Shown here: positions 4,578-60,315 of the stretch, one piece after another | Layout of the letters: every line of letters begins with the position of its first letter | Numbering within the stretch: the stretch's first letter is position 1 | DNA from: Malacoraja senta | Taxonomy: Eukaryota | Assembly: GCA_038087875.1 (NCBI GenBank) | Contig: CM075990.1 | Location: forward strand, 992,001-1,056,000 | Length of the DNA: 64,000 nt | Reading direction: 5' to 3' | Notes under the pieces: model-generated | Database searches by the model: none | What the model was told of the DNA's origin: nothing | The model's input: only the letters and a program-made list of their open reading frames with translations | Made by a program: the position numbers and the translations under genes

Positions 4578-4707
4578 GTAAATGTTGAATCAGCCCTGTG
4601 CATGTCATCTGGCGAGTTACAGTCGTGACGTCTTCCGGAGCGGAGCTGTGCTGGGGTGCGAGGGACTGCGGGCGAGGTGAGTGCTCTTGGCCGTGTGTCT
4701 CTTCACT

Positions 4708-5302
4708 GGTGTGGTCTGGTGTGGTGCGGCACAGTGTGGTGTGTCGTACAGCTGGGTATGGTGTGGTATGGGGCGGTGTGATGTGGGGTGGTGTGGGGCG
4801 GTGTGATGTGGGGTGGTGTGGGGTGGTGTGGGGCAGTGTGATGTGGGGCGGTGTGGGGCGGTGTGGTGTGGGGGTGGTGTGGGGCGGTGTGGTGTGGGGT
4901 GGTGTGATGTGGGGTGGTGTGATGTGGTGTGGTGTGGTGTGGGGTGGTGTGGTGTGGGGTGGTGTGGGGTGGTGTGGGGCGGTGTGGTGTGGTGTGGTGT
5001 GGTGTGGGGTGGTGTGATGTGGGGTGGTGTGGTGTGGGGTGGTGTGGGGTGGTGTGGGGCGGTGTGATGTGGGGGTGGTGTGGGGCGGTGTGATGTGGGG
5101 CGGTGTGGGGCGGTGTGATGTGGGGTGGTGTGGGGTGGTGTGGTGTGGTGTGGGGTGGTGTGGGGCGGTGTGATGTGGCACAGTGTGGTGTGGTGTGGTG
5201 TGGGGCGGTGTGGGACGGTGTGATGTGGCACAGTGTGGTGTGGTGTGGTGGGGTGGGGTATGATGTGGCACAGTGTGGTGTGTTGGGGTGTGGTGTGGTG
5301 CG
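4708..5302. repeat. Degenerate pentamer satellite (GTGGT/GTGGG/GTGAT)n
   Basis: Directly visible tandem array. Confidence 0.95.
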
Positions 5303-6776
5303 GTGCCCAGCGCTGGCCGTGCAGAGCCAGAGACACGAAGGGAAGGGCAACACTCACTGGGAGACCAGCTACACCAAGCTGACCGCGGAGGCTCAAGGGG
5401 CTGCAGATGCTGGAATCCGGAGCTAACACCAAGTGCTGTAGGAACTCAGTGGGTCAGGCAGCATCTGTGGAGGGAATGGACAGGTGATGTTTCAGGTCGG
5501 AAACATCGTGTGAACGCGTGATCAATGGTTGGCATAGACTCAGTGGGTTGACGTATCTGTTTCCAAATGAAACTAACAGTGTGGCTTTGTATGTTAATCT
5601 GTAAATTGTCCCTAGTGTGTAGGGAGTGGATGAGAAAGTGGGATAACATAGAACTAGTGTGAACGGGTGATCACTGGTTGACTCGATGGGCCGAAGGGCC
5701 TGTTTCCGTGCTCTGTTTTTCGATCTTTCAATTAATAGATGAGGCTGATACAGTCATGAAAACAATGTCCTCATGTGCGTTGGTCTCAGCTCCAGTCTAA
5801 CCGGAGCCACTGACCAGATAACATCACTGTGGTCATTTATTCCCCTGTACCCCTGTAACCAGCTTCACACTGCAAGCAGCAAAACACCGCCCCAAACAGG
5901 CAGCTCCCTTCTACAGAAAGACACAAAGTACTGGTGTAACTCAGCGGGTCGGGCAGCATCTCTGGAATAAAAGGATGAGTGACGTTTCGGGTCGGGACCC
6001 TTCTTCAGACAATGGGCAATAACAAGAAATAACTTGCCAGCAATGGTTGGAGATATCAATCAGTTTTTAATTCAGATGTAAACAATATGCGGACAATATA
6101 TGTACAAGATGTACAATGTGTATTGTGCAAACGCTCAGTGAAATTCTTTCCCCACATTCAGTCCAGTAGAGTATTGCCGTACCCAAACACATCCCCGATT
6201 AGCAAGTGTACAGAAATAGTCTACTGAGCCCGCATGCATCATGTGTTGGCACCATTTCCCAAGTCCGCGCTCTAGTTGTTGTGAGCGGTGCCTGATCCAG
6301 GCGAGCCCCAGGCTGCTGCAGGGCCTCCAGCCGTCTCCATCCTTGGATGCCACGTCCCTCTCCTCGCCCGCCCACCTTTGTTCCCCGGGGGGGTGGGAGC
6401 CTCCCGCAGCCGACCTCGAGGGCGCGGTGGGCCAGACCCCGGTTCCCTCTCCTCTCCCACCGGCCTCCTGGCCCAACACGTCCACCTTCGTCACCGCCAG
6501 CTCCCATTACACAGGACTACAGAGCAAAGGGCAGATAGAGAATCCTGTAAGAAGTCAGAAATGGCTTGAGTTCAGTTCAGTTTAGTTTAGTTCAGTTTAT
6601 TGTGACGTGTACCGAGGTACAGTGTAAAGCTTTTGTTGGGTGCTAACCAGTCAGCGGAAAGACAATACATGATTACAATCGAGCCGTCCACGGTGTACAT
6701 GTGTACAGTACAACTCCCACTAGTCTTACAGCTCCGACTACATCTATCTTTGTCCGCCCCCTCCCCTGACATCAGT

Positions 6777-12781: not shown

Positions 12782-13545
12782 TACTATCTAAATGGTGTCA
12801 AGTTGGGAAAAGGGGAAGTACAACGGGATCTGGGGGTCCTTGTACATCAGTCATGAAAGTAAGCATGCAGGTACAGCAGGCAGTGAAGAAAGCGAATGGC
12901 ATGTTGGCCTTTATAACAAGAGGAATCGAATATAGGAGCAAAGAAGTCCTTCTGCAGTTGTACAGAGCCCTAGTGAGACCACACCTGGAGTATTGTGTGC
13001 AGTTTTGGTCCCCTAATTTGAGGAAGCACATTCTTGCTATTGAGGGAGTGCAGCGTAGGTTTACAAGGTTAATTCCCCGGGATGGCGGGACTGTCATATG
13101 CTGAGAGAATGGAGCAGCTGGGCTTGTACACTCTGGAGTTTGGAAGGATGAGAGGGTATCTCATTGAAACATATAAGATTGTTAAGGGCTTGGACACGCT
13201 AGAGGCAGGAAACATGTTCCCGATGTTGGGGGAGTCCAGAACCAGGGGCCACACACAGTTAAGAATAAGGAGTAAGCCATTTAGAACGGAGACGAGGTAA
13301 CACTTTTTCTCACAGAGAGTGGTGAGTCTGTGGAATTCTCTGCCTCAGAGGGCGGTGGAGGCAGGTTCTCTGGATGCTTTCAAGAAAGAACTAGATAGGG
13401 TTCTTAAAGATAGGGGAGTCAGGGGATATGGGGAGATGGCAGGAACGGGGTACTGATTGGGGATGATCAGCCATGATCACATTGAATGGCTGTGCTGGCT
13501 CGAAGGGCCGAATGGCCTACTCCTGCACCTATTGTCTATTGTCTT
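12782..13545 (+). mobile_element. CR1-clade LINE 3' fragment
   Basis: AVKKANGMLAFITRGIEYRS...LVRPHLEYCVQFWSP; (CTATTGT)n tail. Related pieces at 1-225, 19505-19905(-), 26275-26725, 28090-28615(-), 35545-35995(-) and 55283-55770. Confidence 0.88.
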
Positions 13546-14786
13546 TGGCCCCACAAATTCACACCAACCATTGATCACCCTTTCACACTAGTTCTATGTT
13601 ATCCCACTTTCCCATCCACCCCCATCACACTAGGGGTAATTTATTGAGGCTAATTAACCTACAAACCCGCACGTCTTGGGATGTGGGTGGAAATTGGAGC
13701 ACCCGGAGAAAACCCTCAGGGTCACAGAAGAATGTGCAAACTGCACACAGACAGCATCCGAGGTCAGGATCGAACCTGGGCCTGTGGCCCTGTGAAGCAG
13801 TGGCTCTACCAGCTGCTTGGAGTTACTCACTAATCATGGGTCACATCTTCCACATAGAAACACAGTGAGCAGGTTAACAGTGTGTCGTTGTGTGACAGGG
13901 AGGACATGGCCAGGCAGTATCCCAGTAATTCACGGACATCCTTATCCAGCCCCAATATCAGCAGAGCTCTTTAAGTAGCAGCCAGTAAGTGTCAGGAGAC
14001 CATAGACATTAATATCTCAGCGGGACAGGCAGCATCTCTGGAGAGAAGGAATGGGTGATGTTTCAGGTCAAGACCCTTCTTCAGACCAGTCGGGGAAAGG
14101 GAAACGAGAGAAATAGATGATGATGTAGAGAGATAAAGAACAAATGACTGAAAGATATGCAAAATCATACCACTGGTTGTAAGCTGCTCAAGCGAAATAT
14201 GAGACGCTGTTCCTCAATTTGCGATTAGCCCCACTCTGACAATGGAGGAGGCCGAGGACAGGAAGGTCAGTATGGAATGGGAAGGAGAATTGAAGTGTTT
14301 AGCATCCGAGAGATCAGGTAGTTCCAGGCGGACTGAGCGAAAGTGTTCGGCCAGTCTACGTTTGGTCTCGCCGATGTGTAAAAGTCTACATCTTGATACG
14401 GATACAAGAGTTTGAGGATGGGAAACTGAACAAACCAGATAACTGAGGTGCTGAAAAGATAATTGAATTCAAGGTACAGATGGCAAGTGATGTTTCAGGT
14501 TTGGGCACTTCTCCAGACTGAGGATCCCAACCCAAACCATTGTCTGTCCATTCCCTCCACAGATGCTGCCTGAACCGCTGAGTTCCTACTGAGTTCCTGA
14601 GCACTTAGTACTTTGCTAAAGATTCCAGCATCTGTGGTTCCTTGTGTCTCCAATAACTGAAGAGAGACACAAAATGCTGGAATAACTCAGCGGGTCAGGC
14701 TGCATCTCTGGAGAGAAGGAATGGGTGACATTTCTGGTTAAGACCCTTCTTCAGCCGTCTCCAATAATCCACTCTTTCTGTTTCAG

Positions 14787-14897
14787 GGAACATATGGCTT
14801 GTCCAAACCAAATTGCTTGAATGGACATTTTAAGAGGCTCTCGGATGGAAAAGAGTTCAGCGTGATGAGAGAAGTTAGTGGTGATACACTGGTGCAG
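14787..14897 (+). CDS. FABP2-like: FABP2-like coding exon 3
   Basis: ctttctgtttcag|GTYGLSKPNCLNGHFKRLSDGKEFSVMREVSGDTLVQ|gtaggt, phase 0/0. Aligns with FABP2 GTWSLEGNKLIGKFKRTDNGNELNTVREIIGDELVQ. Confidence 0.88.
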
Positions 14898-16558
14898 GTA
14901 GGTCATGGATGGATGAAGGTTTAGTGGAGTCCACTGCAAATTGGAAATTCTGGTGGTTTGGGCTTGGGACAGGCGAGGCTTGTGGATGAAGCCACCCTCG
15001 TCCCACAATAGAAACTTGGGGTGGCACAGTGGCGCAACAGTAGCGCTTCCGCCTCACAGTACCAGAGACCTAGGTTCAATCCTGACTTTGGGTGTTGTTT
15101 GTGTGGAGTTTGCACGTTCTCCTGTGACCACATGGGTTGTCTCCAGTGCGCCAGTTTCCGCCAAAGACGTGCAGGTTTGTAAGTTAATTGGCTTCTGTAG
15201 TGTGTAGGATAACCATATAACCATATAACCATATAACAATTACAGCATGGAAACAGGCCATCTCGGCCCTTCTAGTCCGTGCCGAACACTCTCACCTAGT
15301 CCCATCTACCTGCACTCAGACCATAACCCTCCATTCCTTTCCCGTCCATAGACCTATCACCAGCGCTAGTGTACAGGGTGATCATTGGTCGGCATGGACT
15401 CGATGGGCCGAAGGGCATGTTTCCGTGCTGTATCTCTGAACTAAACTAAACTAAACTAATACAATGAAGATGCCAGGACACTCATAGGGCCAAGTTGCAG
15501 GAATGAGGGATATGGATCATGTGCAGACAAAGTAGAGTTGGTCTTGGAATGATGTTCAGGACAGACATTGAGGGCCGAAGAGCCTGTTCCTGTGCTGTAC
15601 TGTTCTATGTTCTATGCCTCGGTAATTGTGGACATCGTGTGAAATGATATGGAGGAAGTGAAAGAGAAAAGCCTATCCAAAGCCTCTTAAACGCCACTAT
15701 CGTATCTGCCTCACCACCAACTCTGGCAAATGGCAGTGTATTCCAGGTACCAGCACCCAGCGCAAAGACAATGCATGATTACAATCAATATCAATCAATA
15801 TCAATAACAGTTTTATTCGTCACTTTCACATAAAGTGCAAGTGAATTAATTTGCCAGCAGCGGTACAATGAAAAAAGAACACAATACACAATCAAAATGT
15901 AACACAAACACCCCACCACAGCATTCATCACTGTGATGGAAGGCACACAATCTGGCCTGTCCTCCTCCATTTTCCCCCCTGGTCGGGACCTCAACCCTCC
16001 TCAGCCGCCGCTGCGGGCGTCCAGATGTTCAGAGCCATCCACAGTGTAGAGCTACATGTTAAAAGGAATAACATGAATAATGTTTAGTGCAAGATAAAGC
16101 CAGTAAAGTCTGATTAAAAATAGTCCGAGGGTCTTCAATGAGGTACATAGTAGTTCAGGACCGCTCTCTAGTTGGTGATAGGATGGTTCAGTTGCCTGAT
16201 GACAGCTGGGAAGAAACTATCACTGAATCTGGAGGTAGATAAAAAAACTGGAGAAACTCAGCGGGTGAGGCAGCATTTATGGAGCGAAGGAAATAGGCGA
16301 CGTTTGCCTCACCCGCTGAGTTTCTCCAGCATTTTTGTCTACCTTCGATTTTTCCAGCATCTGCAGTTCTTTCTTAAACACTGAATGTGGAGGTGTGTGT
16401 TTTCACACCTCTGTACCTTTTGCCCGATGGGAGAGGGAGAAGAGGGAGTGACCGGGGTGAGACTGGTCCTTCATTATGCTGCTGGCCTTGCCGAGGCAGC
16501 GTGAGGTGAAAATGGAGGCATCTTGCTCTTAACCAAATATATTTTCCTTCAAATGTAG

Positions 16559-17951: not shown

Positions 17952-18574
17952 CTTCCTCCTCTGCTCCCTCTCGAAGAGTCCACATCCTTCCTGTAATGGG
18001 AGCGACCAGATCTGCATGCAATACACCAAATGTGGACTGAGCAAAGATTTACGTAGCTACAACATGACTTCCTGAGTCATATCTCAATGCCCTGACCGAT
18101 GAAGGCAAGCATACCATACGCCTCTTACCATTCTATCTATTTGCGTTACCACTTTCAGGAAATTCTGGACTTGGACCCAGATGTCCCTCTGTACGTCAAT
18201 AATGTTAAAGGTCCATTAACAGTATGCATTCCCCCTTACATTTGACCTCCTAAAGTGCACCACCTCAAACTTGCTCGGATTAAACTCCATCTGCCATTGC
18301 TCTGCCCATTTCTGCAGCTGATCTATATCCCACTGTACTGACAATCTTCCTCACTGTCTGCAACCTCATCATTTGTGTGTCATCTGCAGACTACTCACTA
18401 ATCCATTTACGTTTAGGAACATTCTCACGGCTCTACCACCGAGCTCTACCTGGAGGTGAACCCAATGAGTTCACAAATTATTGGAGTAGAAATAGGCCGT
18501 TCGGCCCATCGAGTCTATGTCATTCAATCATGGCTGATCTCTAGCTCTTAATCCAATTTTCTTGCCTTATACAA

Positions 18575-19373
18575 AATACAATCCTCTGACATTTTCGCCA
18601 CCTCCAGCGAGAACCTCCCACTGGCCACATCTTCCCATCTCACCCCTTTCTGCTTTCCATAGAGACCATTGCCTCTGTACTCCCCGGTCAATTCGTCCCT
18701 TCCTATCCAACACCCCTCCCTGGTACTTTTCCCTGCAACAGCAGGAAATGCTACACCTGTCGCTTTACCTCCCCCCACGACTCCATCCACGGACCCAAAC
18801 AGTCTTTCCAAGTGAGGCAGAGGTTCACCTGCACCTCCTCCAACCTCATCTATTGCATCTGCTGTCATAGGTGTCACCTTCTCTACATCGGCGAGACCAA
18901 GCGTAGGCTCGGCGACCCCTTCGCCCAACACCTCCGCTCAGTCCGTGCTAACCAACCTGATCTCCCGTTTGCCCAGCACTTCAACTCCTCCTCCCCATTC
19001 TGAATCTGACCTTTCTGTCCTGGCCTCCTCCATTGCTACAGTGAGGCCCAGCGTAAATTGGAGGAACAGCACCTCATATTTCGCTTGGGTAGTTTACACC
19101 CAGCGGTATGAACATCGATTTCTCTAATTTCAGGTATTCCTTGCTTTCTCCCTCCTTCACCTCCCCTTCCCAGCTCTCCCACAGCCCACTGTCTCCGCCT
19201 CTTCCTTTCTTTTTCGCGCTCCCCCCCCCCCCCCCACAACATCAGTCTGAAGAAGTGTCTCGACCCAAAACGTCGCCTACTCCTTTTCTCCATAGATGCT
19301 GCCTGACCCGCTAAGTTTCTCCAGCATTTTTTGTCTACTTTCGATTTTTCCAGCATCTGCAGTTCCTTCTTAA
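18575..19373 (+). mobile_element. Penelope-like element 3' fragment (GIY-YIG and pseudo-LTR)
   Basis: RQRFTCTSSNLIYCICCHRCHLLYIGETKRRLGD...FAQHFNS; same terminal repeat as 58932-59130. Confidence 0.88.
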
Positions 19374-22879: not shown

Positions 22880-24060
22880 AAAAATGTATTCAATTATTAA
22901 AAAATAATATTTACACTACAATAAAACAAGCCAGAACCCGCCTCCATAATACAATACAAACATATATCCATAATAAACTACTATACAACTACGTTACTAT
23001 CCTTATTGAGGATACATTCAACACCCTGCGGAGCCCAGCGGTCCTGGAACTCCCCCAGGGTGCCCGTGGACAGCGTGTATTCCCTTTCTAACCCCACCCG
23101 GGCACGGACGTATCCCCGGAAAAGGGGCAGGCAGCCGGCTCGGGTAGAGCCCTCCACCGCCTGGCGCCGTGACTCGCGGATGGCCAGCTTGGCCAGGCCC
23201 AGGAGCAACCCAACCAGGACATCTTTAGCCCTACCCTCTCCCCTACGCACAGGGTGTCCAAAGATGAGGATGGTGGGTGAAAAATGCAGCCAGAAGGCAA
23301 GGAGCAGCCCCTTTAGGTATTCACAGTGGCTGCAGCCTCATGCACTCCATGTACACGTGGTACACAGACTCTTCCAGCCCTCAAAAGTGGCAGGCGGCTG
23401 GCGAGTCTGTGAACCGCGAGAGAAACAGGTTGCAGGGAACACCTCGGTGCAATACCCTCCATCCCAGGTCCCCGATGTAGAGGGGGAGAATCCCTGCGTA
23501 GAGGGACCCCCACCGGGGGCCCCCCTCGTGACCGGAAGGCAACACCGACCGCCACTTGGTGTCTGGATGGTGGCCCAGGGCGAGGAAGTGCAGGGTGTGG
23601 AGGAGGAGCCCGTACAGGACACGCCTCCTGCGTCTCGGAGGGAGATGAAGGGTGTCGAGGAAAGGCGGCTCAAATTGTGTGGGGCCGGCTCCCGGGAAGG
23701 GTTATGGAGCCTGGGTCCGATGAATACCTCCGGCTGAGCGGGGGTTTGCCCAACCACAGGTACTCCACACGTCTGAGCCCCCCCTACACCCGGTGGGGCG
23801 GGACAAGGACTGGCTGCTCTCACGCCCGGGCCGTCACCCTCCGCCGGCGGAGGGGGGGCCCGGTCGACGGCAACCAGGTTCCAGACTGTTAACAAGTTCC
23901 TGTAGAAGCCGGGCATCCCATCAGGACCGCATGGCTGATGCCCACCATCGGGATCCGCGTACCTCCTTGAAGGCAGCGGCTCCGTTGGAAAAAGTGCGTC
24001 GCCAGCACGTGCCACCTGGGAGGATGTCCTGAGGCGGAGAGCCGCCAACTTGGTGCGAAT
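22880..24060 (-). mobile_element. Tx1/L1-like LINE 3' fragment nested in the Rex1 element
   Basis: GLLLGLAKLAIRESRR...LFRGYVRARVGLERE...FQDRWAPQG C-terminus; frameshifted. Confidence 0.7.
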
Positions 24061-24064
24061 GCAA

Positions 24065-24630
24065 GGTAACCAGCTTGGAGGGGATGATGGTGTTAAACGC
24101 CGAGCTGTAGTCAATGAATAACAGCCTGGCATATGAGTTTCTGTTGTCCAAGTGGTCCAGAGTGGAGTGGAGAGCCAGTGAGATCACATCCACCGTTGAC
24201 CTGTTGTGGCGGTAAGCGAACTGCAGAGGGTCCAGGTTCTTGTCGAGGTAGGCGTTGATATGCACCATAATCAACCTCTCAAGGCACTTCATCACCACAG
24301 ACGTTAGTGCCACTGGTCGATAGTCATTGAGGCACGTCACCTTGCCCTTCTTGGGCACCGGTATTATTGTTGCCCTTTTAAAGCAGGTGGGAACCTCAGA
24401 CCTCGGAAGTGAGAGGTTGAAAATATCCGTAAAAACTCCAGCCAGTTGGTCCCCACAGGTTTTTAGAACATGGCCGTGTATACTATCACGTCCAGGTGCT
24501 TTCCGAGGATTCACCCCCCTGAAGGATCTTCTGACGTCGGCCTGTGTGACTGTGACTGAAATACCATCACGGCAAATGGGGGCTTGGGAAGGCACATCAG
24601 TGTCCTCCCTATCAAAGCGTGCGTAAAGCC
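24065..24630 (-). mobile_element. Rex1/Babar-type LINE, RT N-terminal part
   Basis: KAPG...IIPVPKK...NDYRPVALTSVVMKCLERL...DPLQFAYR...LFIDYSSAFNTIIP. Confidence 0.88.
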
Positions 24631-24669
24631 AATGTTCTTTCTGATGATGATACCTTGCCACATACCTAG

Positions 24670-25909
24670 CAGGCACGTGCCTTGAGTAATTACTCAGGGT
24701 AGGCAGTCAGTCGGCTTAAAAAAAATCTTAAACCGCGCATGCGCTGATTGTTCTCCTCTCCGTAAACATAAAGAATTAAAATAAAGAAAGTAACAATTCA
24801 ATTTGCCCAAGGCTTCCTAATCTACTTCATTCTGAATTACTGAATGGGTGGGGGGTGGAGGGTGATGGCAGGTGGAGAGATGGTGGGAAAAACGGGAGAC
24901 AAGTTGAATCAGTTGTCGTCTTATTGAATGACAATAATGAATAAATGAATGAATGAATGAATGAATGAAGTTTATACTAATACTAGTTCAAGGGACCAAT
25001 TGGGGGGAGAGTTACTTTCACAGCATGTGGTGTGTCTGGCCAGGGGTAATTTTGCGGGGAGGGCAGGGGCGTTGAGAAGGAGGGGGTCGCGGATCATGCC
25101 AGCAACTCACTTACTTACCGCAGCCGCGGCGCTCCGGGCTCGGAGCCACCGCATTGTGGCCAGGGAGGAAAGCAGCTCGGGTGGCTGCGAGCGGCTGCAG
25201 GACCTCAGCGCCTTCTGCCGGCCCTCTCACCTCTGGCTGTGCACTCCGTCTGAACAGTGAGAGGACCAGCTCAAGAGCAAAGATCATAGAGCGTAGCGGG
25301 TCAGCGGGCGATGGATAACAGGACAGCGGGCAGTGGACACTCCTGTTTCAGCGCGAACAAGGGACCAATTAGGTTACACGCTCTGACACATGGAGCAAGC
25401 TCCACTGCCCGCTGTCCTGTTATCCATCGCCTGCTGACCCGCTCTTGAGCTGGTTGCTCTGGCATGATCCCCGACCCCCTCCTTCTCAACGCTCCTGCCC
25501 TCCCGCAACTTTACCCCTGGCCAGACTCCCCACACGCTGTGAAAGGAACTTTCCCCCCCAGCGGAGCTGTCCTTTTAATCCCCCCCAGTGCCGCTTCCCA
25601 CTTTACAGCCGCTTGCGCTGCGCATGCGCAGTACACAGTCCACGCTGCAAAGGCAGAATTTCAGCTGCCTTCAGCTCTGCTTGAAATTGATGGCTTGAAC
25701 AGCGTCCACGGCACGTGGGCTGCACACACTTTCCTGTGTTACATGTACTGCGCATGAAAGGCACGGAGAATTATGCCTACCTAAGAGATCGATCTCTTAG
25801 ATAGGCATAATTCTCCGTGCCTTTAATATTTATATTCAACAATTATCAATTTCTAATTTTAGTCAGGGTACGCAGTGCCTGCCTTGCCTACCCTGACGAC
25901 ACGTGCCTG
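24670..25909. mobile_element. Non-autonomous hAT-type element (1240 bp) with nested inverted repeats
   Basis: TIR CAGGCACGTG...CACGTGCCTG; 8-bp TSD ATACCTAG (24662-24669 and 25910-25917). Confidence 0.85.
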
Positions 25910-34389: not shown

Positions 34390-35350
34390 TGGGTGAGAGG
34401 GAAAGGTAAAGCCCCTCCCCTATATACTAGCCACGCCCACAGCACACAGGCCCCGCCCACCCTGCCAGTCACTGGCCCCGCCCTTCACTGGGCCCCGCCC
34501 ACGACCATTGTCCGAAGACCACGCCCACACCTCCCTGGCCCCGTCATTGTCCCTAGGCCACGCCCACACCTCCCTCGCTCCGTCATTGTCCACAGGCCCA
34601 GCCCACACCTCCCAGACCCCGCCCATTATACCGAGGTTCCGCCCACTCGCCCATGGACCCTCCCCTCCAACGCCTCCTTAGCCCCGCCCACTACAAGACC
34701 CCGTCCACTATCCTGGGCCCGCCCACTGCAGACCCCCGTCTGCTACACGGGCCCCGCCCACTATAGTGACCCCGCCCACACCGCTCTGACCCCGCCCATT
34801 GCCCCCAGACCCCGCCTCTCTCCCTCGCTGGCGGCGGCGGCGGCGTTGTGTTGTGCGCGGCGTGGCGTGGCGGTGACGTGGCGCAGGGAGGTGCGCGCCT
34901 GGTGAGGGAGCAAGGCCGCGGGCGGGGCCGCAGCCGGAGCGGAGCCGAGAGCCGAGAGCCGGAGCCAGCGCCGCCGACATGCCGCCCTCCACCCTGCCTC
35001 TGCTGCTCGCCTGCCTCGGCCTCAGCATCCTGTGCGCCCGGGCCGACGAGCACGACCACACGGTAAGGTGGGCCCCGGGCTGGATTTGATCGGCGCCCCC
35101 CCCCCCCCCCCCTCTCTTCCCCGGGCCACGGCGCCTAGGCCCAGGCCGGTCCCGAGCGGCCCGGCCACCCCCGCTCGCCGGCCGCGGCCTGTGGACACGG
35201 CCTCAAACCCGAGGCCCAGGCTGCGGCCTCAGGGCGGCTGCCAGGTGTGGATGTGGCGGCTGAAGGGCCGGGCTCCAGGCCTACAGTGTGTGCCGGTGCT
35301 TCCGCTCTCCCCCAGAGCCGGGCCTGGCCGAGCCGGGGGTGGCAGCGGTG
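34390..35350 (+). promoter_or_regulatory. TM9SF3 CpG-island promoter with an array of Sp/KLF GC boxes
   Basis: About 15 co-oriented CC(C/A)CGCCC motifs at 34410-34820, then a CpG-rich 5' UTR, exon 1 and start of intron 1. Confidence 0.85.
34979..35062 (+). CDS. TM9SF3: Transmembrane 9 superfamily member 3, exon 1 (signal peptide)
   Basis: GCCGACATG; MPPSTLPLLLACLGLSILCARADEHDHT|gtaagg. Hydrophobic leader followed by the DEH(E/D)HT mature N-terminus typical of TM9SF3. Confidence 0.93.
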
Positions 35351-40955: not shown

Positions 40956-41549
40956 GATTACAGTCGAGCCATCCACAGTGTACAGATACATGATAATGGG
41001 AATAAAGTTTAGTGCAAGGTAAAGTCCTGTAACGTCTGATTAAAGATAGTCCAAGGGCAAGAAATGCTGCTGTTGGAGTAGGGATTTAAAGGAGTGGGGC
41101 AATTGTAATGTGTGATTGCAGACCAGCACACAGAGTTGCTTCGCTTGGGCGTCATCTTGAATCAATGGTCCTTGTTGAGTTAAATTTAAGGACTGCCTCA
41201 AAGGCAGATGTTTAAATGTTTTTTAATAAATTCCAGGCCATGAGTTGTTGGCAGTTAAACACACAGCCACCAGGTACGGATTATTTTAAATTTGGTACGA
41301 TCAGACAGCGAGAACTGGAGTACCATCTTCTCAGATAGCTGGAGGACTGGGGATCAGAAGTGTGTTGGGTGGGTTGATTATGTTTTAACGGAAGTACATG
41401 AAAATAAGAATTGTAATTGTACTGTCAGTCAAAAGAAGAATCCCGGCCAAAATGTCTCCTGTCCATCCCCCCCCCCTCCCCCCCAAGATGCTACCCGACC
41501 CGCTGAGAATGTTACTATGTTGGCACTGCTGAAGAGGAGACCCAGCATA

Positions 41550-43167
41550 CAGTGGCTTGCAAAAGTATTCATACCCCTTGAACTTTTCCACATTTTGTCA
41601 CGTTACAACCACAAACGTAAGTCTATTTTATTGGGATTTTATGTGATAGACCAACACAAAGTGGCGCATAATTGTGAAGTGGAAGGAAAATGATACATGG
41701 TTTTCAAATTTTTTTACAAATAAAAAACTGAAAAGTGTGGCGTGCAAAAGTATTCAGCCCCCTTTACTCTGATACCCCTAAATAATATCCAGTGCAACCA
41801 ATTGCCTTCAGAAGTCACCTAATTAGTAAATAGAGTCCACTTGTGTGTAATCTAATCTCAGTATGAATACAGCTGTTCTGTGAAGGCCTCAGAGGTTTGT
41901 TAGAGAACATTAGTGAACAAACAGCATCATGAAGCCCAAGGAACACACCAGACAGGTCAGGGATAAAGTTGTGGAGAAGTTTAAAGCAGGGTTAGGTCAT
42001 AAAAAAATATCCCAAGCTTTGAACATCTCACGGAGCACTGTTCAATCCATCATCCGAAAATGGAAAGAGTATGGCACAACTGCAAACCTACCAAGACATG
42101 GCCGTCCACCTAAACTGACAGGCCGGGCAAGGAGAGCATTGATCAGAGAAGCAGCCAAGAGGCCCATGGTAACTCTGGAGGAACTGCAGAGATCCACAGC
42201 TCATGTGGGAGAATCTGTTCACAGGACAACTATTAGTCGTGCACTCCACAAATCGGGCCTTAATGGAAGAGTGGCAAGAAGAAAGCCATTGTTGGAAAAA
42301 AAGCCATAAGAAGTCCCGTTTGCAGTTTGCCACAAGCCATGTGGGGGACACAGCAAACATATGGAGGAAGGTGCTCTGGTCAGATGAGACCAAAATTGAA
42401 GTTTTTGGCCTAAATGCAAAACGCTATGTGTGGCGGAAAACGAACACTGCACATCACCCTGAACACACCATCCCCACTGTGAAACATGGTGGTGGCAGCA
42501 TCATGCTGTGGGGATGCTTTTCTTCAGCAGGGACAGGGAAGCTGGTCAGAGTTGATGGGAAGATGGATGGAGCCAAATACAGGGCAATCTTGGAAGAAAA
42601 CCTGTTAGAGTCTGCAAAAGACTTGAGACTGGGGCGGAGGTTCACCTTCCAGCAGGACAACGACCCTAAACATACAGCCAGAGCTACAATGGAATGGTTT
42701 AGATCAAAGCATATTCATGTGTTAGAATGGCCCAGTCAAAGTCCAGACCTAAATCCAATTGAGAATCTGTGGCAAGACTTGAAAATTGCTGTTCACAGAC
42801 GCTCTCCATCCAATCTGACTGAGCTTGAGCTATTTTGCAAAGAAGAATGGGCACAAATTTCAGTCTCTAGATGTGCAAAGCTGGTAGAGACATACCCCAA
42901 AAGACTTGCAGCTGTAATTGCAGCGAAAGGTGGTTCTACAAAGTATTGACTCAGGGGGGCTGAATACTTTTGCACGCCACACTTTTCAGTTTTTTATTTG
43001 TAAAAAAATTTGAAAACCATGTATCATTTTCCTTCCACTTCACAATTATGCACCACTTTGTGTTGGTCTATCACATAAAATCCGAATAAAATACATTTAC
43101 GTTTGTGGTTGTAACGTGACAAAATGTGGAAAAGTTCAAGGGGTATGAAAACATTTGCAAGCCACTG
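41550..43167 (+). mobile_element. Full-length Tc1-family (DD34E, IR/DR, Passport-like) DNA transposon
   Basis: TA|CAGTG...CACTG|TA; about 213-bp TIRs (41550-41762 and 42955-43167), each with two GCAAAAGTATTCA-type direct repeats. Confidence 0.96.
41929..42949 (+). pseudogene. Tc1 transposase, 339 aa, with a single +1 frameshift near 42300
   Basis: MKPKEHTRQVRDKVV...GRPPK...ARRKPLL joins SHKKSRLQFA...WSDETK...QQDND-(34)-NPIEN...GGSTKY*. Span is 1021 nt, i.e. 340 codons plus 1. Confidence 0.93.
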
Positions 43168-43574
43168 TAATTCCCTGAGCTTATGGAGGAGCCAAATGGA
43201 ATTCAGAAGCTCATGTAGAAACTCTAAAGGGGAGACCAAACTATGACCAAGAATGTGAGTTGGAACAGTACAGGTGGTGCAGCAGTAGAGTTGCTGCCTT
43301 TACCACGCCAGAGACCCTGGTTCGTTCCTAACTATGGATGCTGTCTGTACTGAGTTTGTACGTTCTCCCCGTGACCTGCGTGGGTTTTCTCTGGGATCTC
43401 CGTTTTCCTCTCACACTCCAAAGACGTGCAGGTTTGTAGGTTAATTGGCTTTGGTATAATTGTAAATTGTCCCTAGTGTGTAGGATAGTGTAAGTGTGTG
43501 GGGATCGCTGGTCGATGCGGATTCAGTTGACCAAAGGGCCTGTTTCCACGCTGTATCTCTAGACTAAAAAAAAT

Positions 43575-43580
<6 letters not shown>
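43018..43580 (+). repeat. 563-bp direct repeat, left copy (Tc1 right end, unique DNA and SINE)
   Basis: Matches 46192-46754 with no differences seen. Confidence 0.95.
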
Positions 43581-43638
<58 letters not shown>

Positions 43639-46191
43639 TTTAATTTTTATTTATTAGAAGTACATTACATCACAGCCACATACATTAATACTCGTCATTT
43701 ATATCTTCTTACAATTAATGTACTCCCTTTATTATTTTTTTTTTTACGCTAAAGAAAGAAAAGATTGAAAGAGAGAAGAAAGTGAAGGAAAAAGTGCAAG
43801 TGTAGAAAAGTGTAGAAAATGTAACAACAAAAAAAAAGGACGAGGACCCTATGAGAGCGAAATTAAAAACAAAAAGAAAAAGAGTTAAGAAATAGGCCCT
43901 AAGAAAAGAAAAGAGAGAGAGAAAAAAAGAAAAACAAATGTTTTTTTTTTTTTTGAGCATCACGTAAATAGGACATACCAACTCTTCAACTATCATCCCC
44001 CCTTACCCGACCTCAATTTTTTATTTTTTTAAAGTACTTTTGCACCCTATGTTTGTAATAATTCTATAAATGCAGACCACGTCAGGTGGAAGTGATCTGG
44101 TTTACCTGCTAGGAGGAGTCTTATCTCTTCAAGGTGTAGTGTTTCAAACATATTTGAAATCCACATATTTATAGTTGGTATTGGAGCCTTCTTCCAAAAT
44201 TTTAGAATTAGCTTTTTTCCAGTTATTAACCCATAATCCATTAATTTCTTTTGAAACACATTTAGTTCTGGATCATCTTCCGTTATTCCGAAGATAATCC
44301 ATTCTGCTTTGGGTATCAGTCTTGTTTTAAATAACTTTGTAAAGATTTCAAAAATTTCATTCCAAAATTTTTGAATTTTTGTACAGAAGACAAATGAGTG
44401 CGCTATAGTTGCTTCTTGGGATTGACATTTATCACAAATAGATGATACGTTTGGGAAAATTTTATGAATTTTAGTTTTCGAATAATATAATCTATGTAAA
44501 ATTTTAAATTGTATTAAAGTGTGTCTTACATTAATCGAGCATTTATGTACTTTTAATAAGTATTCATTCCAACTTTCCTTTGAAATTTTAATAGCTAACT
44601 CTTGTTCCCAGTCTCTTCTGATACCCTCCGTAGATGGTATTTGTACATTTAAGATAATATTGTACAAATATGATATTAAGTTTGCTGATTCCGCTTTTGT
44701 CTGCATTGCCTCGTCCAGTACATCTGCTGGGTTATTATGATGATCTTTTATATATTTTTTCAAATAGTCGCATATTTGAAAGTATTTAAAATATTGATTA
44801 TTTCCGAGTTTATATTTTATTTGTAATTGTTGAAATGAAAGTAATTTTCCAGTTTCATACAAGTCACCAAGCGTTTTAATTCCTAGTCTATCCCATTGTG
44901 TATAAGCTTTATCTATAATAGAAGGACTAAACGAAGGGTTATTGACTATAGGTAATAAAAGTGATAAGTTTCTTAATTTTAAATTTTGTTTTATTTGTTT
45001 CCAAATACGGATTGTACTATGAATAATTGGGTTCTTATTATAGTTTATGTTATTCAATTTCATTGGAGAGAGGAGGATCGCTCCAATGTTTCTAGAGGAG
45101 CAATCCTCTTTCTCCATTACAATCCAGTCTACTTGCTGGGCGGAGTTATCCATCAGTTGAATCATGTTTTTAATATTTACTGACCAATAATAATACATAA
45201 AATTGGGTAGTGCTAGACCCCCCAATACTTTAGATTTATTCAGATGGGTTTTTTGTATTCTATGTGATTTATAGTCCCATATAAAATTAGTGATATCTGA
45301 GTCGAGTTTTTTAAAAAACTTCTTAGGTAAGTATATAGGAATTGATTGAAATAGGTATAAAATTTGTGGTAAAAAGATCATTTTTATTGCGTTTATTCGG
45401 CCTATTAAAGACATCGGAAGCGTTTTCCAGAATTTAATTAATGTATTCAGTTTATTAAGTAGGGGGTCAAAATTTGCCCTGAGCATACCTTGATATGCTC
45501 TGGTAATTTCGATTCCCAAATATTTAAATTTTTCTGTAGCTATTTTAAAAGGGAATTTTAAAAGATGTGTTGAATCTTTCGGTTTTATTGACATAATTTC
45601 ACTTTTATTCCAATTTATTCTATATCCAGAAAAAGATCCGAAGTCTTCAATTAAATTTAATATATTTGGTATAGTGATTTGAGGTTTTGTAATATACAAT
45701 AATATATCATCCGCGTATAAAGATATTTTATTATATGAGTCTTTAGTATTATATCCATGAATATCAGGGTGTATTCTAATTTTTTCTGCTAGCGGTTCAA
45801 TAATGAGAGCGAACAGCTGTGGTGATAATGAGCATCCTTGTCTATTTCCCCTTGATAGTTGAAATTTCGAGGATAATATGTTATTAGTAAGTATTCTAGC
45901 TGTAGGTTTGTTATATAGTAACTTAATCCATAAAATAAAATTCTCTCCCAGTTGAAATTTTTGTAATACTTTATCCATATAATTCCATTCTACTTGATCA
46001 AATGCTTTTTCAGCATCCAGCGAAATAATTGATAATTCTTGATCTTCAGATTTGTGTGAGTGCATTATGTTGAGTAGACGTCTCATATTATTAGAAGAGT
46101 ATCTCTTAGGGATAAACCCTGTCTGATCTGGGTTTATTAATTTACTAATGTATTTACTTAATCTTCTGGCTAATGTTTTCGCTAATATTTG
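43581..46191 (-). mobile_element. 5'-truncated L1-clade LINE with poly(A) tail
   Basis: About 57-nt T run at 43580-43636 with adjacent AATAAA motifs on the minus strand, a 3' UTR and an uninterrupted ORF2 fragment. Confidence 0.93.
44047..46191 (-). CDS. L1 ORF2 fragment (reverse transcriptase and C-terminal CCHC domain)
   Basis: Motifs QTGF, SLDAEKAFD, RQGCSLSP, LYADD, KYLG, CDKC-x8-H-x4-C; about 715 codons without a stop. The endonuclease domain is lost by truncation. Confidence 0.92.
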   Translation of the reverse strand, partial: QILAKTLARRLSKYISKLINPDQTGFIPKRYSSNNMRRLLNIMHSHKSEDQELSIISLDAEKAFDQVEWNYMDKVLQKFQLGENFILWIKLLYNKPTARILTNNILSSKFQLSRGNRQGCSLSPQLFALIIEPLAEKIRIHPDIHGYNTKDSYNKISLYADDILLYITKPQITIPNILNLIEDFGSFSGYRINWNKSEIMSIKPKDSTHLLKFPFKIATEKFKYLGIEITRAYQGMLRANFDPLLNKLNTLIKFWKTLPMSLIGRINAIKMIFLPQILYLFQSIPIYLPKKFFKKLDSDITNFIWDYKSHRIQKTHLNKSKVLGGLALPNFMYYYWSVNIKNMIQLMDNSAQQVDWIVMEKEDCSSRNIGAILLSPMKLNNINYNKNPIIHSTIRIWKQIKQNLKLRNLSLLLPIVNNPSFSPSIIDKAYTQWDRLGIKTLGDLYETGKLLSFQQLQIKYKLGNNQYFKYFQICDYLKKYIKDHHNNPADVLDEAMQTKAESANLISYLYNIILNVQIPSTEGIRRDWEQELAIKISKESWNEYLLKVHKCSINVRHTLIQFKILHRLYYSKTKIHKIFPNVSSICDKCQSQEATIAHSFVFCTKIQKFWNEIFEIFTKLFKTRLIPKAEWIIFGITEDDPELNVFQKKLMDYGLITGKKLILKFWKKAPIPTINMWISNMFETLHLEEIRLLLAGKPDHFHLTWSAFIELLQT

Positions 46192-46754
46192 CATGTATCA
46201 TTTTCCTTCCACTTCACAATTATGCACCACTTTGTGTTGGTCTATCACATAAAATCCGAATAAAATACATTTACGTTTGTGGTTGTAACGTGACAAAATG
46301 TGGAAAAGTTCAAGGGGTATGAAAACATTTGCAAGCCACTGTAATTCCCTGAGCTTATGGAGGAGCCAAATGGAATTCAGAAGCTCATGTAGAAACTCTA
46401 AAGGGGAGACCAAACTATGACCAAGAATGTGAGTTGGAACAGTACAGGTGGTGCAGCAGTAGAGTTGCTGCCTTTACCACGCCAGAGACCCTGGTTCGTT
46501 CCTAACTATGGATGCTGTCTGTACTGAGTTTGTACGTTCTCCCCGTGACCTGCGTGGGTTTTCTCTGGGATCTCCGTTTTCCTCTCACACTCCAAAGACG
46601 TGCAGGTTTGTAGGTTAATTGGCTTTGGTATAATTGTAAATTGTCCCTAGTGTGTAGGATAGTGTAAGTGTGTGGGGATCGCTGGTCGATGCGGATTCAG
46701 TTGACCAAAGGGCCTGTTTCCACGCTGTATCTCTAGACTAAAAAAAATGAAACT
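46192..46754 (+). repeat. 563-bp direct repeat, right copy
   Basis: Matches 43018-43580; includes CACTG|TA of the Tc1 end at 46341. Confidence 0.95.
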
Positions 46755-48585
46755 AAAAGAAGACTAGGAGGGATCTATTACAAGTCTCAGGTCAAATCAA
46801 ATTTATCTGGACAATAGAAATAACCAGAGTGAATCCAATGTTGATGGAGAGACAGAATGTTGAGTCAAACCTCAATCAAATGGAGAAACTAAAGTTGCTG
46901 GAAATACTGAGCAGGTCAGACAATATATGTGGAGAAAAAAGCAGTTTGAGCGCTGATCTTTTATCAGAACCAAGTTAGATAGTGAGCATGTTTACGTTTA
47001 GAGGAAGGAAAGGTTGAGAAAACAAAGGGGAAAAAAATGTGTTGTATATCTGAGACCGAATCATGCAAATAGTGGTGAGCTGGCAGTGTGGGTAATCGAG
47101 GTTTGCCAATCAACTGCTTTCTGGAGGAAGTGTTGATGGAGGGAGATGAATGAGGACAGGAGAGCACTGAAACAATAATTGGTGGGATTGAGGTAAACAG
47201 CACAGCTCCTACTGGAAGTCTGGGAATATAACATAGCACAGTACAACACAGGAACAAAGCCTTTAGCCCACAAAGTCCATGCCGAACTTGATGCCAAGTT
47301 AAACTAATCTCGGCCTGCACGTAATCCATATCCCTCCATTCCCTGCTTATCCATGTACTTATCTGAAAGGCTCTTAAACGCCACGATTGTATCTGCCTCC
47401 ACAGCACCCTGCAGTGTACCATTCTCTGAGTAAATACTTGCTCTGCACATCTCCTTTCAAAGTTTTTCCTCTCACCTTATAGATATGCCCTCTAGTCTTT
47501 GACATTTTCACCCTAGGGGGAAAAGGTGAGAAATTTCCAGCAATTTCTGTTTTCATTGCAGTTATCCAAGACCTGCAGGTTTTTGCTTTACAATCAAGAA
47601 GCATGATGCATTCCAATGAAAAGCTGCCACTTTGATAGGTTTTAATGACTCTGACCATTCACACTGTTCACCTATAGCTGAAGCTACAGATGCTATGCAA
47701 TATTTACCAAGGCTTTTTTAATAGGATTTGCCAAACTCCCATTATATTGGAGGACAAAGTCAACAATTGTCTGGAATTATTATTGCCACCCTCTCCAAGC
47801 CAAACATTATCCCGACTTAAAAATCTCATGATTTCTCTTAGCTGTTGTGTCACTGCATGATGCTCCACCCAATACCATTGTATTTCCTGTAAGCACTTCC
47901 ACAGGTTAGCAAGCAGTCCACCTCTGTCATGTTCCATTGATTTGCTGTCCAATTTTTCAAAAATCCTCGTGTTTCAGCACCTGACTTGCCAGGTTTATTG
48001 CCCCTCCCTTGCTTGAAGCTTGCCTGCGCCCCTAATTCATGTCCTCCCATTAAACATACACGGTTCTCTGGAACATGTATTGTGTAACATCTTAAAAATA
48101 AAGATAGACACAAAATGCTGGAGTCCCGACAGGCAGCATCTCTGGAGAAAAACAATAGGTAACCTTTCGGGTCGAGACCCTTCTTCAGACATAGAGTCAG
48201 GGGAGATGGAAATGCGAGATATAGGATGAATGAAAGATATGCAAATTCAACGAGACATAAAATGTCACCTATTCCATCCGTCCAGAGATGCGGCCTGACC
48301 TGCTGAGTTACTCCAGCATTTTGTGTCCATCTTTGGTGTAAACCAGTATCTGCAGTTCCTTCCTACACATCTTAAAAATATATAATAGCGTCCTGAAATA
48401 TTAAATAGGACAAAACTGAATTTCACTGTAGTTTTGTACATGTGACAAATAAAGTACCATCGACAATACCATTATGTAATATTCATTCGTCCAAGAAATC
48501 TGCCAGAGTGGTCCCACCAAAATCGCAATCATGTTGGATTGTTAACGTTTTAGTACACTACCTTCTTAAGGGAAATTGAGGCCGT

Positions 48586-51662: not shown

Positions 51663-51858
51663 TATGCAGATAAAGAAGAAGTCGTCTTGTGGATGAATAC
51701 TGTTGGACCGTACCATAACCGGCAAGAGACATACAAGTACTTTTCCCTGCCCTTTTGTGCAGGGAAGAAAAAGACTATTAACCATTATCATGAAACTTTA
51801 GGTGAAGCTCTTCAAGGAGTTGAGCTGGAGTTTAGTGGTCTTGATATCAAATTTAAAG
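51663..51858 (+). CDS. TM9SF3: TM9SF3 exon 2
   Basis: ttttttcag|[66 protein letters not shown]|gtagg, 196 nt, in frame with exon 1. Later exons are not found in this window. Confidence 0.96.
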
Positions 51859-58770: not shown

Positions 58771-58931
58771 TTAAATAGTGGAGAGGATTTATTTCATCCC
58801 AAGGAGGACTATAATTCAAGTGCTTGCCTAGATTCGACAATGTTGTGAGAGTACCTGCCTTCACCACTCACTCAAGCAGTGCATTTCAGATTCCATCGCC
58901 ACCTGGATGAAAACCGACTTCCTCAGATTCT

Positions 58932-60315
58932 AAGGTAGACAAAAATGCTGGAGAAACTCAGCACGTGAGGCAGCATCTATGGAGCGAAGGAAATAGAGAA
59001 CGTTTCGGGTCGAGACCCTTCTTCAGACTGATGTGAGGGTGGGGGGGGGGGGCGGGGCGGGGCGGGAAGAAGAAAGGAAGAGACGGAGACAGTGGGCTGA
59101 GGGAGAGCTGGGAAGGGGAGGAGAAAGCCGGGACTACCTGAAATTAGAAAAGTGAATGTTCGTACCGCTGGGGTGTAAACTGCCCAAGCGAAATATGAGG
59201 TGCTGCTCCACCAATTTACGGTGGTCCTCACTCCGGCCACGGAGGAGGCCCAGGACAGAAAGGTCGGATTTGGAATGGGAGGGGGAGTTGAAGTGCTGAG
59301 CCACTGGGAGATCAGGTTGGTTATTGCGAACCGAGCGGAGGTGTTCGGCGAAGTGATCGCCAAGACTACGCTTGGTCTCACCGATGTGGAGCAGCTGACA
59401 CCTAGGAGCAGTAGATGCAATTAGGTGAGGTTGGAGGAGGTGCAAATGAACCTCTGCCGCACCTGGAAAGACTGCTTGGGTCCTTGAATGGAATCAAGGG
59501 GGGAGGTAAAGCAACAAGTGCAGTATTTCTTGCGGTTGCAAGGGAAAGTGCCAGGAGAGGGGTGGTTTGGGTGGGAAGGGACGAATTGACCAGAGAGTTA
59601 CGGAGGGAGCAGTCTCTGCGGAAAGCAGACAGGGGAGGAGATGGGAAGATGTGGCCAGTGGTGGGATCCCGTTGGAAGTGGCGAAAATGTCAGAGGATTA
59701 TTTGTTGTATGTGACGGCTGGTAGGGTGGAAGGTGAGGACTCTGTCCTTGTTACGAGTGGGGGGATGGGGAGTGAGAGCAGAGTTACGGGGTATAGAGAG
59801 TCCCTGGTGAGAGCCTCATCTATAGTAGAAGAGGGGAACCCCTGTTCCCTGAAGAATGAGGACATCTCCGATGCCCTGGTGTGGAACTCCTCATCCTGGG
59901 TGCAGATGCGGCGTAGATGGAGGTATTGGGAGTAGGGGATGGAGTCCTTACAGGAAGCAGGGTGGGAAGAAGTGTAGTCCAGATAGCCATGGGAGTCAGT
60001 GGGTTTATAGTAGATGTCGGTCAGTAGTCTATCACCTGTGATGGAGAGAGTGAGGTCTAGAAATGGTAGCGAAATGGTCCAGGTGTATTTGAGTGCCGAA
60101 TGGAAGTTAGTGGTGAAATGGATGAAGTCAGTGAGTTGTGTATGGGTGCAGGAGGTAGCACCAATGCAGTCGTCGATGCAGCGGAGGTAGAGTTCGGGGA
60201 TAGGGCCATGGTACGCCTCGAACTAAGATTGTTCGACGTACCCTATAAAGAGGCAGGCATAGCTTGGGCCCATGCGCGTGCCCATAGCTACGCCTTGTAT
60301 TGGGAGGAAATGGGC
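58932..60315 (-). mobile_element. Penelope-like retroelement (RT C-terminus, GIY-YIG endonuclease and pseudo-LTR), degraded
   Basis: Minus-strand QGVAMGTRMGPSYACLF...CIDD and HIGETKRSLGDHFAEH...VAQHFN...HPSGTNIHFSNFR*, followed by a terminal repeat containing CTGAAGA...GAAAC. Confidence 0.9.
58999..59026 (-). ncRNA. Hammerhead-like core in the Penelope pseudo-LTR
   Basis: Reverse complement is CTGAAGAAGGGTCTCGACCCGAAACGTT. Confidence 0.5.

Follow-up and report, generated by a model that had tools for sequence, protein, structure and literature searches.

In this work we have analysed a window of 64,000 nucleotides of Malacoraja senta, by which we mean the whole stretch of DNA presented here, and have found in it a 5'-truncated L1-clade retrotransposon enclosed by two identical copies of a 563-bp segment of host DNA. 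We consider it probable, at roughly 0.6, that this arrangement goes back to one recent event: reverse transcription started from the right end of the segment (D), the unfinished cDNA was joined without homology 563 bp away, and D was copied twice. The features of the locus, in window coordinates, are the following.

34979 to 35062, plus strand: coding part of exon 1 of the host TM9SF-family gene
41548 to 43169, plus strand: Tc1-family DNA transposon of 1622 bp, with matches to HTH_SB, HTH_Tnp_Tc3_2 and DDE_3
43018 to 43580, plus strand: first copy of the duplicated segment (D1), in which 152 bp from the end of the Tc1 right repeat are followed by about 100 bp of unique DNA, a SINE and an A-rich tail
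43273 to 43568, inside D1: the old SINE, with the A-rich tail at its end
43566 to 43573, minus strand: T8/AG site fitting the human-type L1 endonuclease consensus (PMC2912911), on the non-priming strand and 15 nt from the priming position
43580 to 43636, minus strand: L1 poly(A) tail, 57 nt, uninterrupted
43637 to 44046, minus strand: L1 3' UTR, with AATAAA just before the tail
44047 to 46190, minus strand: 5'-truncated L1-clade ORF2, from the start of the reverse transcriptase domain to the C-terminus, stop-free up to the TAG at 44047-44049
46191, no strand assigned: single extra base between the L1 5' end and D2, the L1 homology ending at 46190
46192 to 46754, plus strand: second copy of the duplicated segment (D2), equal to D1 and including all six Tc1 variants specific to the right repeat
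46755 to 47305, plus strand: single-copy right flank, directly following D where the insertion is absent
51663 to 51858, plus strand, end approximate: exon 2 of the host gene (Pfam EMP70, E 2.7e-5, below the curated cut-off)

When repeats were compared within the window, D1 and D2 agreed at 563 of 563 positions and formed a maximal exact match, as the first-pass annotation of this DNA had claimed from the letters. They are thus an exact direct repeat far above 100 bp that adjoins both ends of the insert. Exact direct 60-mer repeats are confined, over the whole window, to D1/D2, a 2-kb duplicate beside the assembly gap and one 61-bp SINE match, so that identity by chance is excluded. The left end of the segment falls within the right terminal repeat of the Tc1 element, so that its first 152 bp belong to that repeat, a circumstance absent from the first-pass annotation. 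All six variants which distinguish the right from the left Tc1 repeat at this locus are present in D2, and D2 was therefore copied from its own locus. At the 3' end of the insert the fit is exact: the poly(T) was said to begin where the first copy ends, and its first T indeed doubles as the last base of D1. The insert had also been described as sitting precisely between the repeats, which is right for this end but not for the 5' end, where an extra base intervenes. We found no DNA hairpin at either breakpoint (z scores of -0.48, -0.24, 0.58 and 0.30 for all four stretches) and no Rfam matches within 41000-48000.

The enclosed element is an L1-type retrotransposon, and the description of it as a 5'-truncated copy with a long pure poly(A) and a stop-free ORF2 is accurate. 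Its frame matches Pfam RVT_1 (E 6e-33), a reverse transcriptase domain of the non-LTR type, and residues 1-689 of the ORF2 query are collinear with residues 542-1232 of human L1 ORF2p, through the C-terminal cysteine-rich region (E 7e-80, 272 bits), whereas the best R2 protein match reaches 63 bits. Truncation falls inside the start of the reverse transcriptase domain and has removed the N-terminal APE endonuclease; a 51%-identical relative, P0006, carries PF03372/PF14529, and no ORF1 was seen. The best full-length relatives of ORF2 are fish proteins with about 50% identity, and two partial matches labelled as skate reach 61-69%; these relatives point to a cartilaginous-fish host. No second copy of the L1 lies in the 64,000-nt window, and a metagenome scan for the family gave one locus from 15 pattern matches, merely 36% identical. 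In the public contigs of the sample X19, described below, 28 of those listed carry the L1 family sequence on past 46190, in frame with the TDQKIL motif of the relative P0002. Since the family extends past this point, 46191 counts as a single extra base, at a 5' junction which shows no homology and no plain microhomology. A single extra base at a truncated 5' end is in keeping with canonical target-primed reverse transcription, in which such ends are joined via microhomology or extra bases. In another, weak reading the junction aligns with target DNA outside the repeat, over 5 nt that follow a gap of 5 nt and of which 46191 is the last.

Could the long duplication be a product of the assembly? 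A short target-site duplication (TSD) might have been merged with an empty haplotype, a long read might be chimeric, or the assembly might have jumped through another locus with an L1 in a Tc1 element. There are reasons to take this seriously. The repeats are 100% identical, the junction between the L1 5' end and D2 was not seen directly in the contigs listed, chimeras explained large TSDs elsewhere (PMC4805530), and the assembly does hold a false duplicate: positions 1-1992 and 13320-15296, beside the only gap (200 N, 2011-2210), differ by 14 indels, all of them extra bases in the contig-end copy, and two substitutions, and are a probable false duplication from a contig end. D1 and D2 differ from this case, with 0 differences against 16 and a depth that is not single-copy; the locus lies about 41 kb from the sole gap, D2 has the Tc1 variants of its own locus, and a merge of haplotypes would link the L1 to the end of D and not to its start.

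Public contigs bear on the same question. The 24 public runs listed are all in the form of contigs. Organism F is represented among them by the samples X19 and X20, in which 76% and 68% of the words occur; together with the relatives X1 and X21 they were aligned to 45400-47600, which contains one repeat copy. X19 showed no differences from the window on four of four locus-specific records and may be the sample used for the assembly. Its contigs unique to the repeat have depths of 10.1 and 9.1, while its flank contigs have 4.01 and 3.66, a ratio of 2.56. In a Poisson model with six settings of read length and depth, a ratio of at least 2.56 arose with a probability of 0.001-0.010 for one copy (P at most 0.01), 0.02-0.09 for 1.5 copies and 0.17-0.27 for two copies, a simulation which may understate the noise because the depth is low and the library type of X19 is not on record. 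Furthermore, the X19 flank contig begins at 46725, exactly 30 bases ahead of the flank, and this is the expected branch of a 31-mer graph if the end of D leads into both the flank and the poly(T). The word size of 31 is taken from the documentation of the tool; with 30 repeat-side letters the contig is one below the 31-letter bridging rule. From there it is continuous to 47305. A TSD of 7-18 bp would have placed a re-entry node within this stretch, and none is seen, although simplification and cleaning of contigs can hide or remove branches. The 563-bp duplication thus lies outside the 7-18 bp of canonical insertions. Among the contigs listed from X19 and the other runs we saw none over the junction of the L1 5' end and D2, which has no overlap usable by an assembler; these are contig data, without a single molecule across the locus. 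The support is therefore indirect, but neither a single copy nor a short TSD agrees with the depth ratio and the continuous flank contig of X19, and the duplication very probably exists in DNA rather than in the assembly alone. A short TSD with merged haplotypes, which the first-pass annotation had named as the finding that would overturn it, failed in this indirect test, and an assembly artefact in any of its forms seems to us improbable.

Contigs that lack the insertion define the empty site. The X20 contig starts at 46715, passes 46725 unbroken and bridges GAAACT/AAAAG with 40 repeat-side letters and one difference in 590. That difference indicates another haplotype or individual, and the lack of a break at 46725 suggests that X20 does not carry the L1. 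In the relative X1, too, a contig of about 92% identity crosses this empty junction, and the pre-insertion sequence proposed in the first-pass annotation is thereby borne out. The repeat-unique part had zero depth in X20 and X1, a value which we left out of the argument, as 88% and 92% of these runs were read. The insertion is probably polymorphic. Taken together with the depth excess and contig boundary in X19, the unbroken X20 contig also upholds the earlier claim of a long TSD tied to the L1. The depth excess suggests that most X19 molecules carry the insertion, so that an inherited insertion is more likely than a low-level somatic one.

The insertion is recent. With 0 differences in 563, the divergence of D1 and D2 is bounded below 0.53% (95%), compared with 2.8% between the Tc1 element's own repeats; the tail is pure, the frame is open, and X20 apparently lacks the insertion. 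The first-pass annotation spoke of a currently active L1 family that can duplicate host DNA. Recent activity of the family is supported by the uninterrupted 57-nt tail, the identity of the repeats and the open ORF2, but a habit of duplicating host DNA is not, since one event shows no family-wide habit. The summed contig depth over the L1 (45400-46190) was far higher in both organism F runs than in organisms G or A, a depth sum not being a copy number, and this copy carries the minority letter at 45483, 45640 and 45889. Both observations hint at a recent lineage-specific burst with subfamilies.

The surroundings of the insertion allow its place in a series of events to be suggested. The L1 lies antisense in intron 1, with exon 1 about 8 kb and exon 2 about 5 kb away. 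The first-pass annotation had placed it in TM9SF3 intron 1; the two exons confirm intron 1 of a TM9SF-family gene, whose paralogue we take to be TM9SF3. No solved structure matched exon 2, and no function of the L1 insertion is implied. The Tc1 element has terminal inverted repeats of 215 bp (41548-41762 and 42955-43169) with TA at both ends and six differences between them (2.8%), and its transposase is split across two frames near 42300; it is fairly young. The alignment of the relative X21 (organism G) ends at the TA of this element, with 76 unlike letters beyond, and Tc1 is probably absent there. The SINE, common to organisms A and G, would then have come first, followed by Tc1, apparently absent at its TA in organism G, and last by the L1 with the duplication, apparently absent in X20. 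We also considered whether a transposase cut at the left breakpoint, and rejected this, as this breakpoint falls 152 bp inside the Tc1 repeat and is clear of both the ends of that repeat and the short repeat within it. Separately, the duplication adds a third, truncated Tc1 end of 152 bp with TA, which together with the left repeat brackets a 4.8-kb unit (41548-46343) including the L1; the inner repeat motif is missing, which for a transposon of this type makes mobility doubtful. Elsewhere in the window there are two more open frames resembling those of LINEs, of 261 and 281 aa, on the minus strand (23338-24706), two copies of another repeat, 83% alike and with a reverse transcriptase-like frame (18569-19344 and 58929-60222), and a tandem array of 600 bp (4707-5305) with G/T-rich, TGGTG-type units.

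How might a segment of 563 bp have been copied twice? In the reading we prefer, a nick in the plus strand at AACT/AAAAG would have primed reverse transcription at the right end of D, one T pairing with the poly(A) tail. The incomplete cDNA would likely have become attached, without homology, to another DNA end at a distance of 563 bp, and fill-in would then likely have copied D twice. The far end could have come from a distant nick with unwinding (PMC5223499) or from break-induced replication (10.1101/2024.12.14.628481), as proposed for human cells. These correspond to the two mechanisms offered by the first-pass annotation, a distant second nick or repair synthesis, and both stay candidates.

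More questions are raised by the sequence at the priming site. On the primed strand the site is AACT/AA and fits the human TTTT/AA poorly, although this consensus is human and may not be that of the fish L1 family. On the opposite, minus strand there is CTTTT/AG at the junction bond and the T8/AG site 15 nt away, and from 42900 through the pre-insertion junction these are the only two TTTT/AR sites. Is it possible that the duplication is real and that the wrong strand primed? The minus strand would have been nicked at one of these sites, a reciprocal or run-off blunt end of the plus strand would have primed on the poly(A) through one T, and the cDNA would have restarted replication 563 bp back through a short target match outside the repeat. 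Both minus-strand sites fit the human consensus, which the primed strand does not; the offset of 15 nt equals the modal TSD or stagger of L1 in mammals and zebrafish, 13-15 bp according to PMC6007223; the 5' junction can be read as five further matches after a 5-nt gap; and reverse transcription from reciprocal ends has been reported in human cells (10.1101/2024.12.14.628481). Over the whole window, a T is followed by AAAA with a chance of 0.006, a figure which overstates the oddity because the site lies in the A-rich tail of a SINE. Against this stand the single event and a weak 5-nt match, in whose second step there is no microhomology. We regard wrong-strand priming as a doubtful though reasonable alternative. 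Its extension to the family, in which this fish L1 would prime from the strand opposite the endonuclease nick, at a reciprocal end or a blunt end left by fork run-off, and restart replication hundreds of bases back, is still less likely. If it were true, long inherited duplications would be a regular product, missed by TSD callers limited near 30 bp, and the high-copy young family would be a natural data set on how the second strand is cut.

It may also be that no endonuclease was involved: the host, in repairing a fork that had collapsed or a break that arose spontaneously, would have made a tandem duplication and captured an L1 cDNA at its junction. This would agree with the weak match of the primed strand to an endonuclease site, with a 5' junction that lacks homology, and with the L1-bridged sister-chromatid duplications described in tumours (PMC7058536). 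A random break would, however, hardly be expected to leave a long, intact tail which begins with a T and whose position coincides exactly with a good endonuclease site or is 15 nt removed from one, and we find this explanation improbable. A switch of the reverse transcriptase from L1 RNA to a local antisense RNA over D would account for the position of D2 after the cDNA end and one extra base, as template jumps can leave. The host pre-mRNA, which we considered as a template as well, is of the plus strand and cannot template plus-sense extension; there is no known antisense transcript at the locus, and a duplication at the DNA level would predict just what is observed, an end of D2 exactly at the priming site. 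Such a switch seems to us barely credible.

L1 insertions with long TSDs are an already described class (PMC5223499, 10.1101/2024.12.14.628481, PMC2666801), and this locus is a new member of it. The closest likeness is to the L1 inserts of HeLa and of cells deficient in nucleotide excision repair (PMC5223499), which share a 5'-truncated L1, a long poly(A) and exact direct repeats of hundreds of bp, for example 503, 516 and 552 bp in Table 3 of that paper. TSDs of more than 100 bp were found there in 22 of 28 XPD-, 21 of 23 XPC- and 4 of 7 XPA-deficient inserts and in less than 10% in HeLa. By contrast, ours is a natural allele of a probable cartilaginous fish and not an engineered insert in cultured cells, and its primed strand lacks the TTTT/A that most, not all, of theirs have. 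Small tandem duplications bridged by L1 are regarded as large TSDs in 10.1101/2024.12.14.628481, and a megabase form is known from PMC7058536; in both an L1 lies at the duplication junction, and break-induced replication or sister-chromatid joining has been proposed. Those are somatic and of 1-10 kb or larger, whereas ours measures 563 bp and is apparently inherited. The zebrafish ZfL2-2 in chicken DT40 cells (PMC2666801) is another fish LINE which gave a rare long TSD (1228 bp, in 1 of 25 inserts) and commonly extra 5' bases, but it is of the L2 clade and was an engineered element in a heterologous host. With canonical vertebrate L1 insertions, whose TSDs are 7-18 bp (PMC6007223, PMC2912911), the locus shares the poly(A), the 5' truncation, the L1-clade ORF2 and an extra 5' base, the last seen in 14.6% of truncated human copies; it differs in a duplication about 40 times the modal length and in having its good endonuclease sites on the non-primed strand. 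The HERV-K (HML-2) alleles with TSDs of 111 and 250 bp (PMC5488345) are likewise polymorphic germline insertions with abnormally long TSDs, although they arise by integrase chemistry and not by target-primed reverse transcription.

Whereas cultured cells and tumours have furnished examples of such long duplications, reports of them as natural inherited alleles are rare. In human germline surveys nearly all TSDs are under 25-30 bp (PMC4805530, appendix), and at least one such survey limited its search to 5-30 bp (PMC2912911); in human RC-seq, 10 of 10 sampled candidates with large TSDs were chimeras (PMC4805530). In our literature search, partial in its coverage, no natural L1 case with a TSD of that length, hundreds of bp, turned up outside the mammals, which is a weak negative; from PMC8934628, PMC12458276 and PMC13526784 we drew nothing further on long TSDs.

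There is as yet no settled account of how the second strand comes to be opened when an L1 inserts, and long TSDs are the most informative outliers, seen at appreciable rates mainly in HeLa and repair-deficient cells. Later removal of such duplications via recombination between the repeats has been suggested (PMC5223499). Long TSDs duplicate DNA of the size of exons and could be lost in this way. One locus leaves the model of L1 insertion unchanged, but a family-wide count might alter it. A natural, apparently inherited and polymorphic case of 563 bp in a non-mammal shows that such events can pass through the germline.
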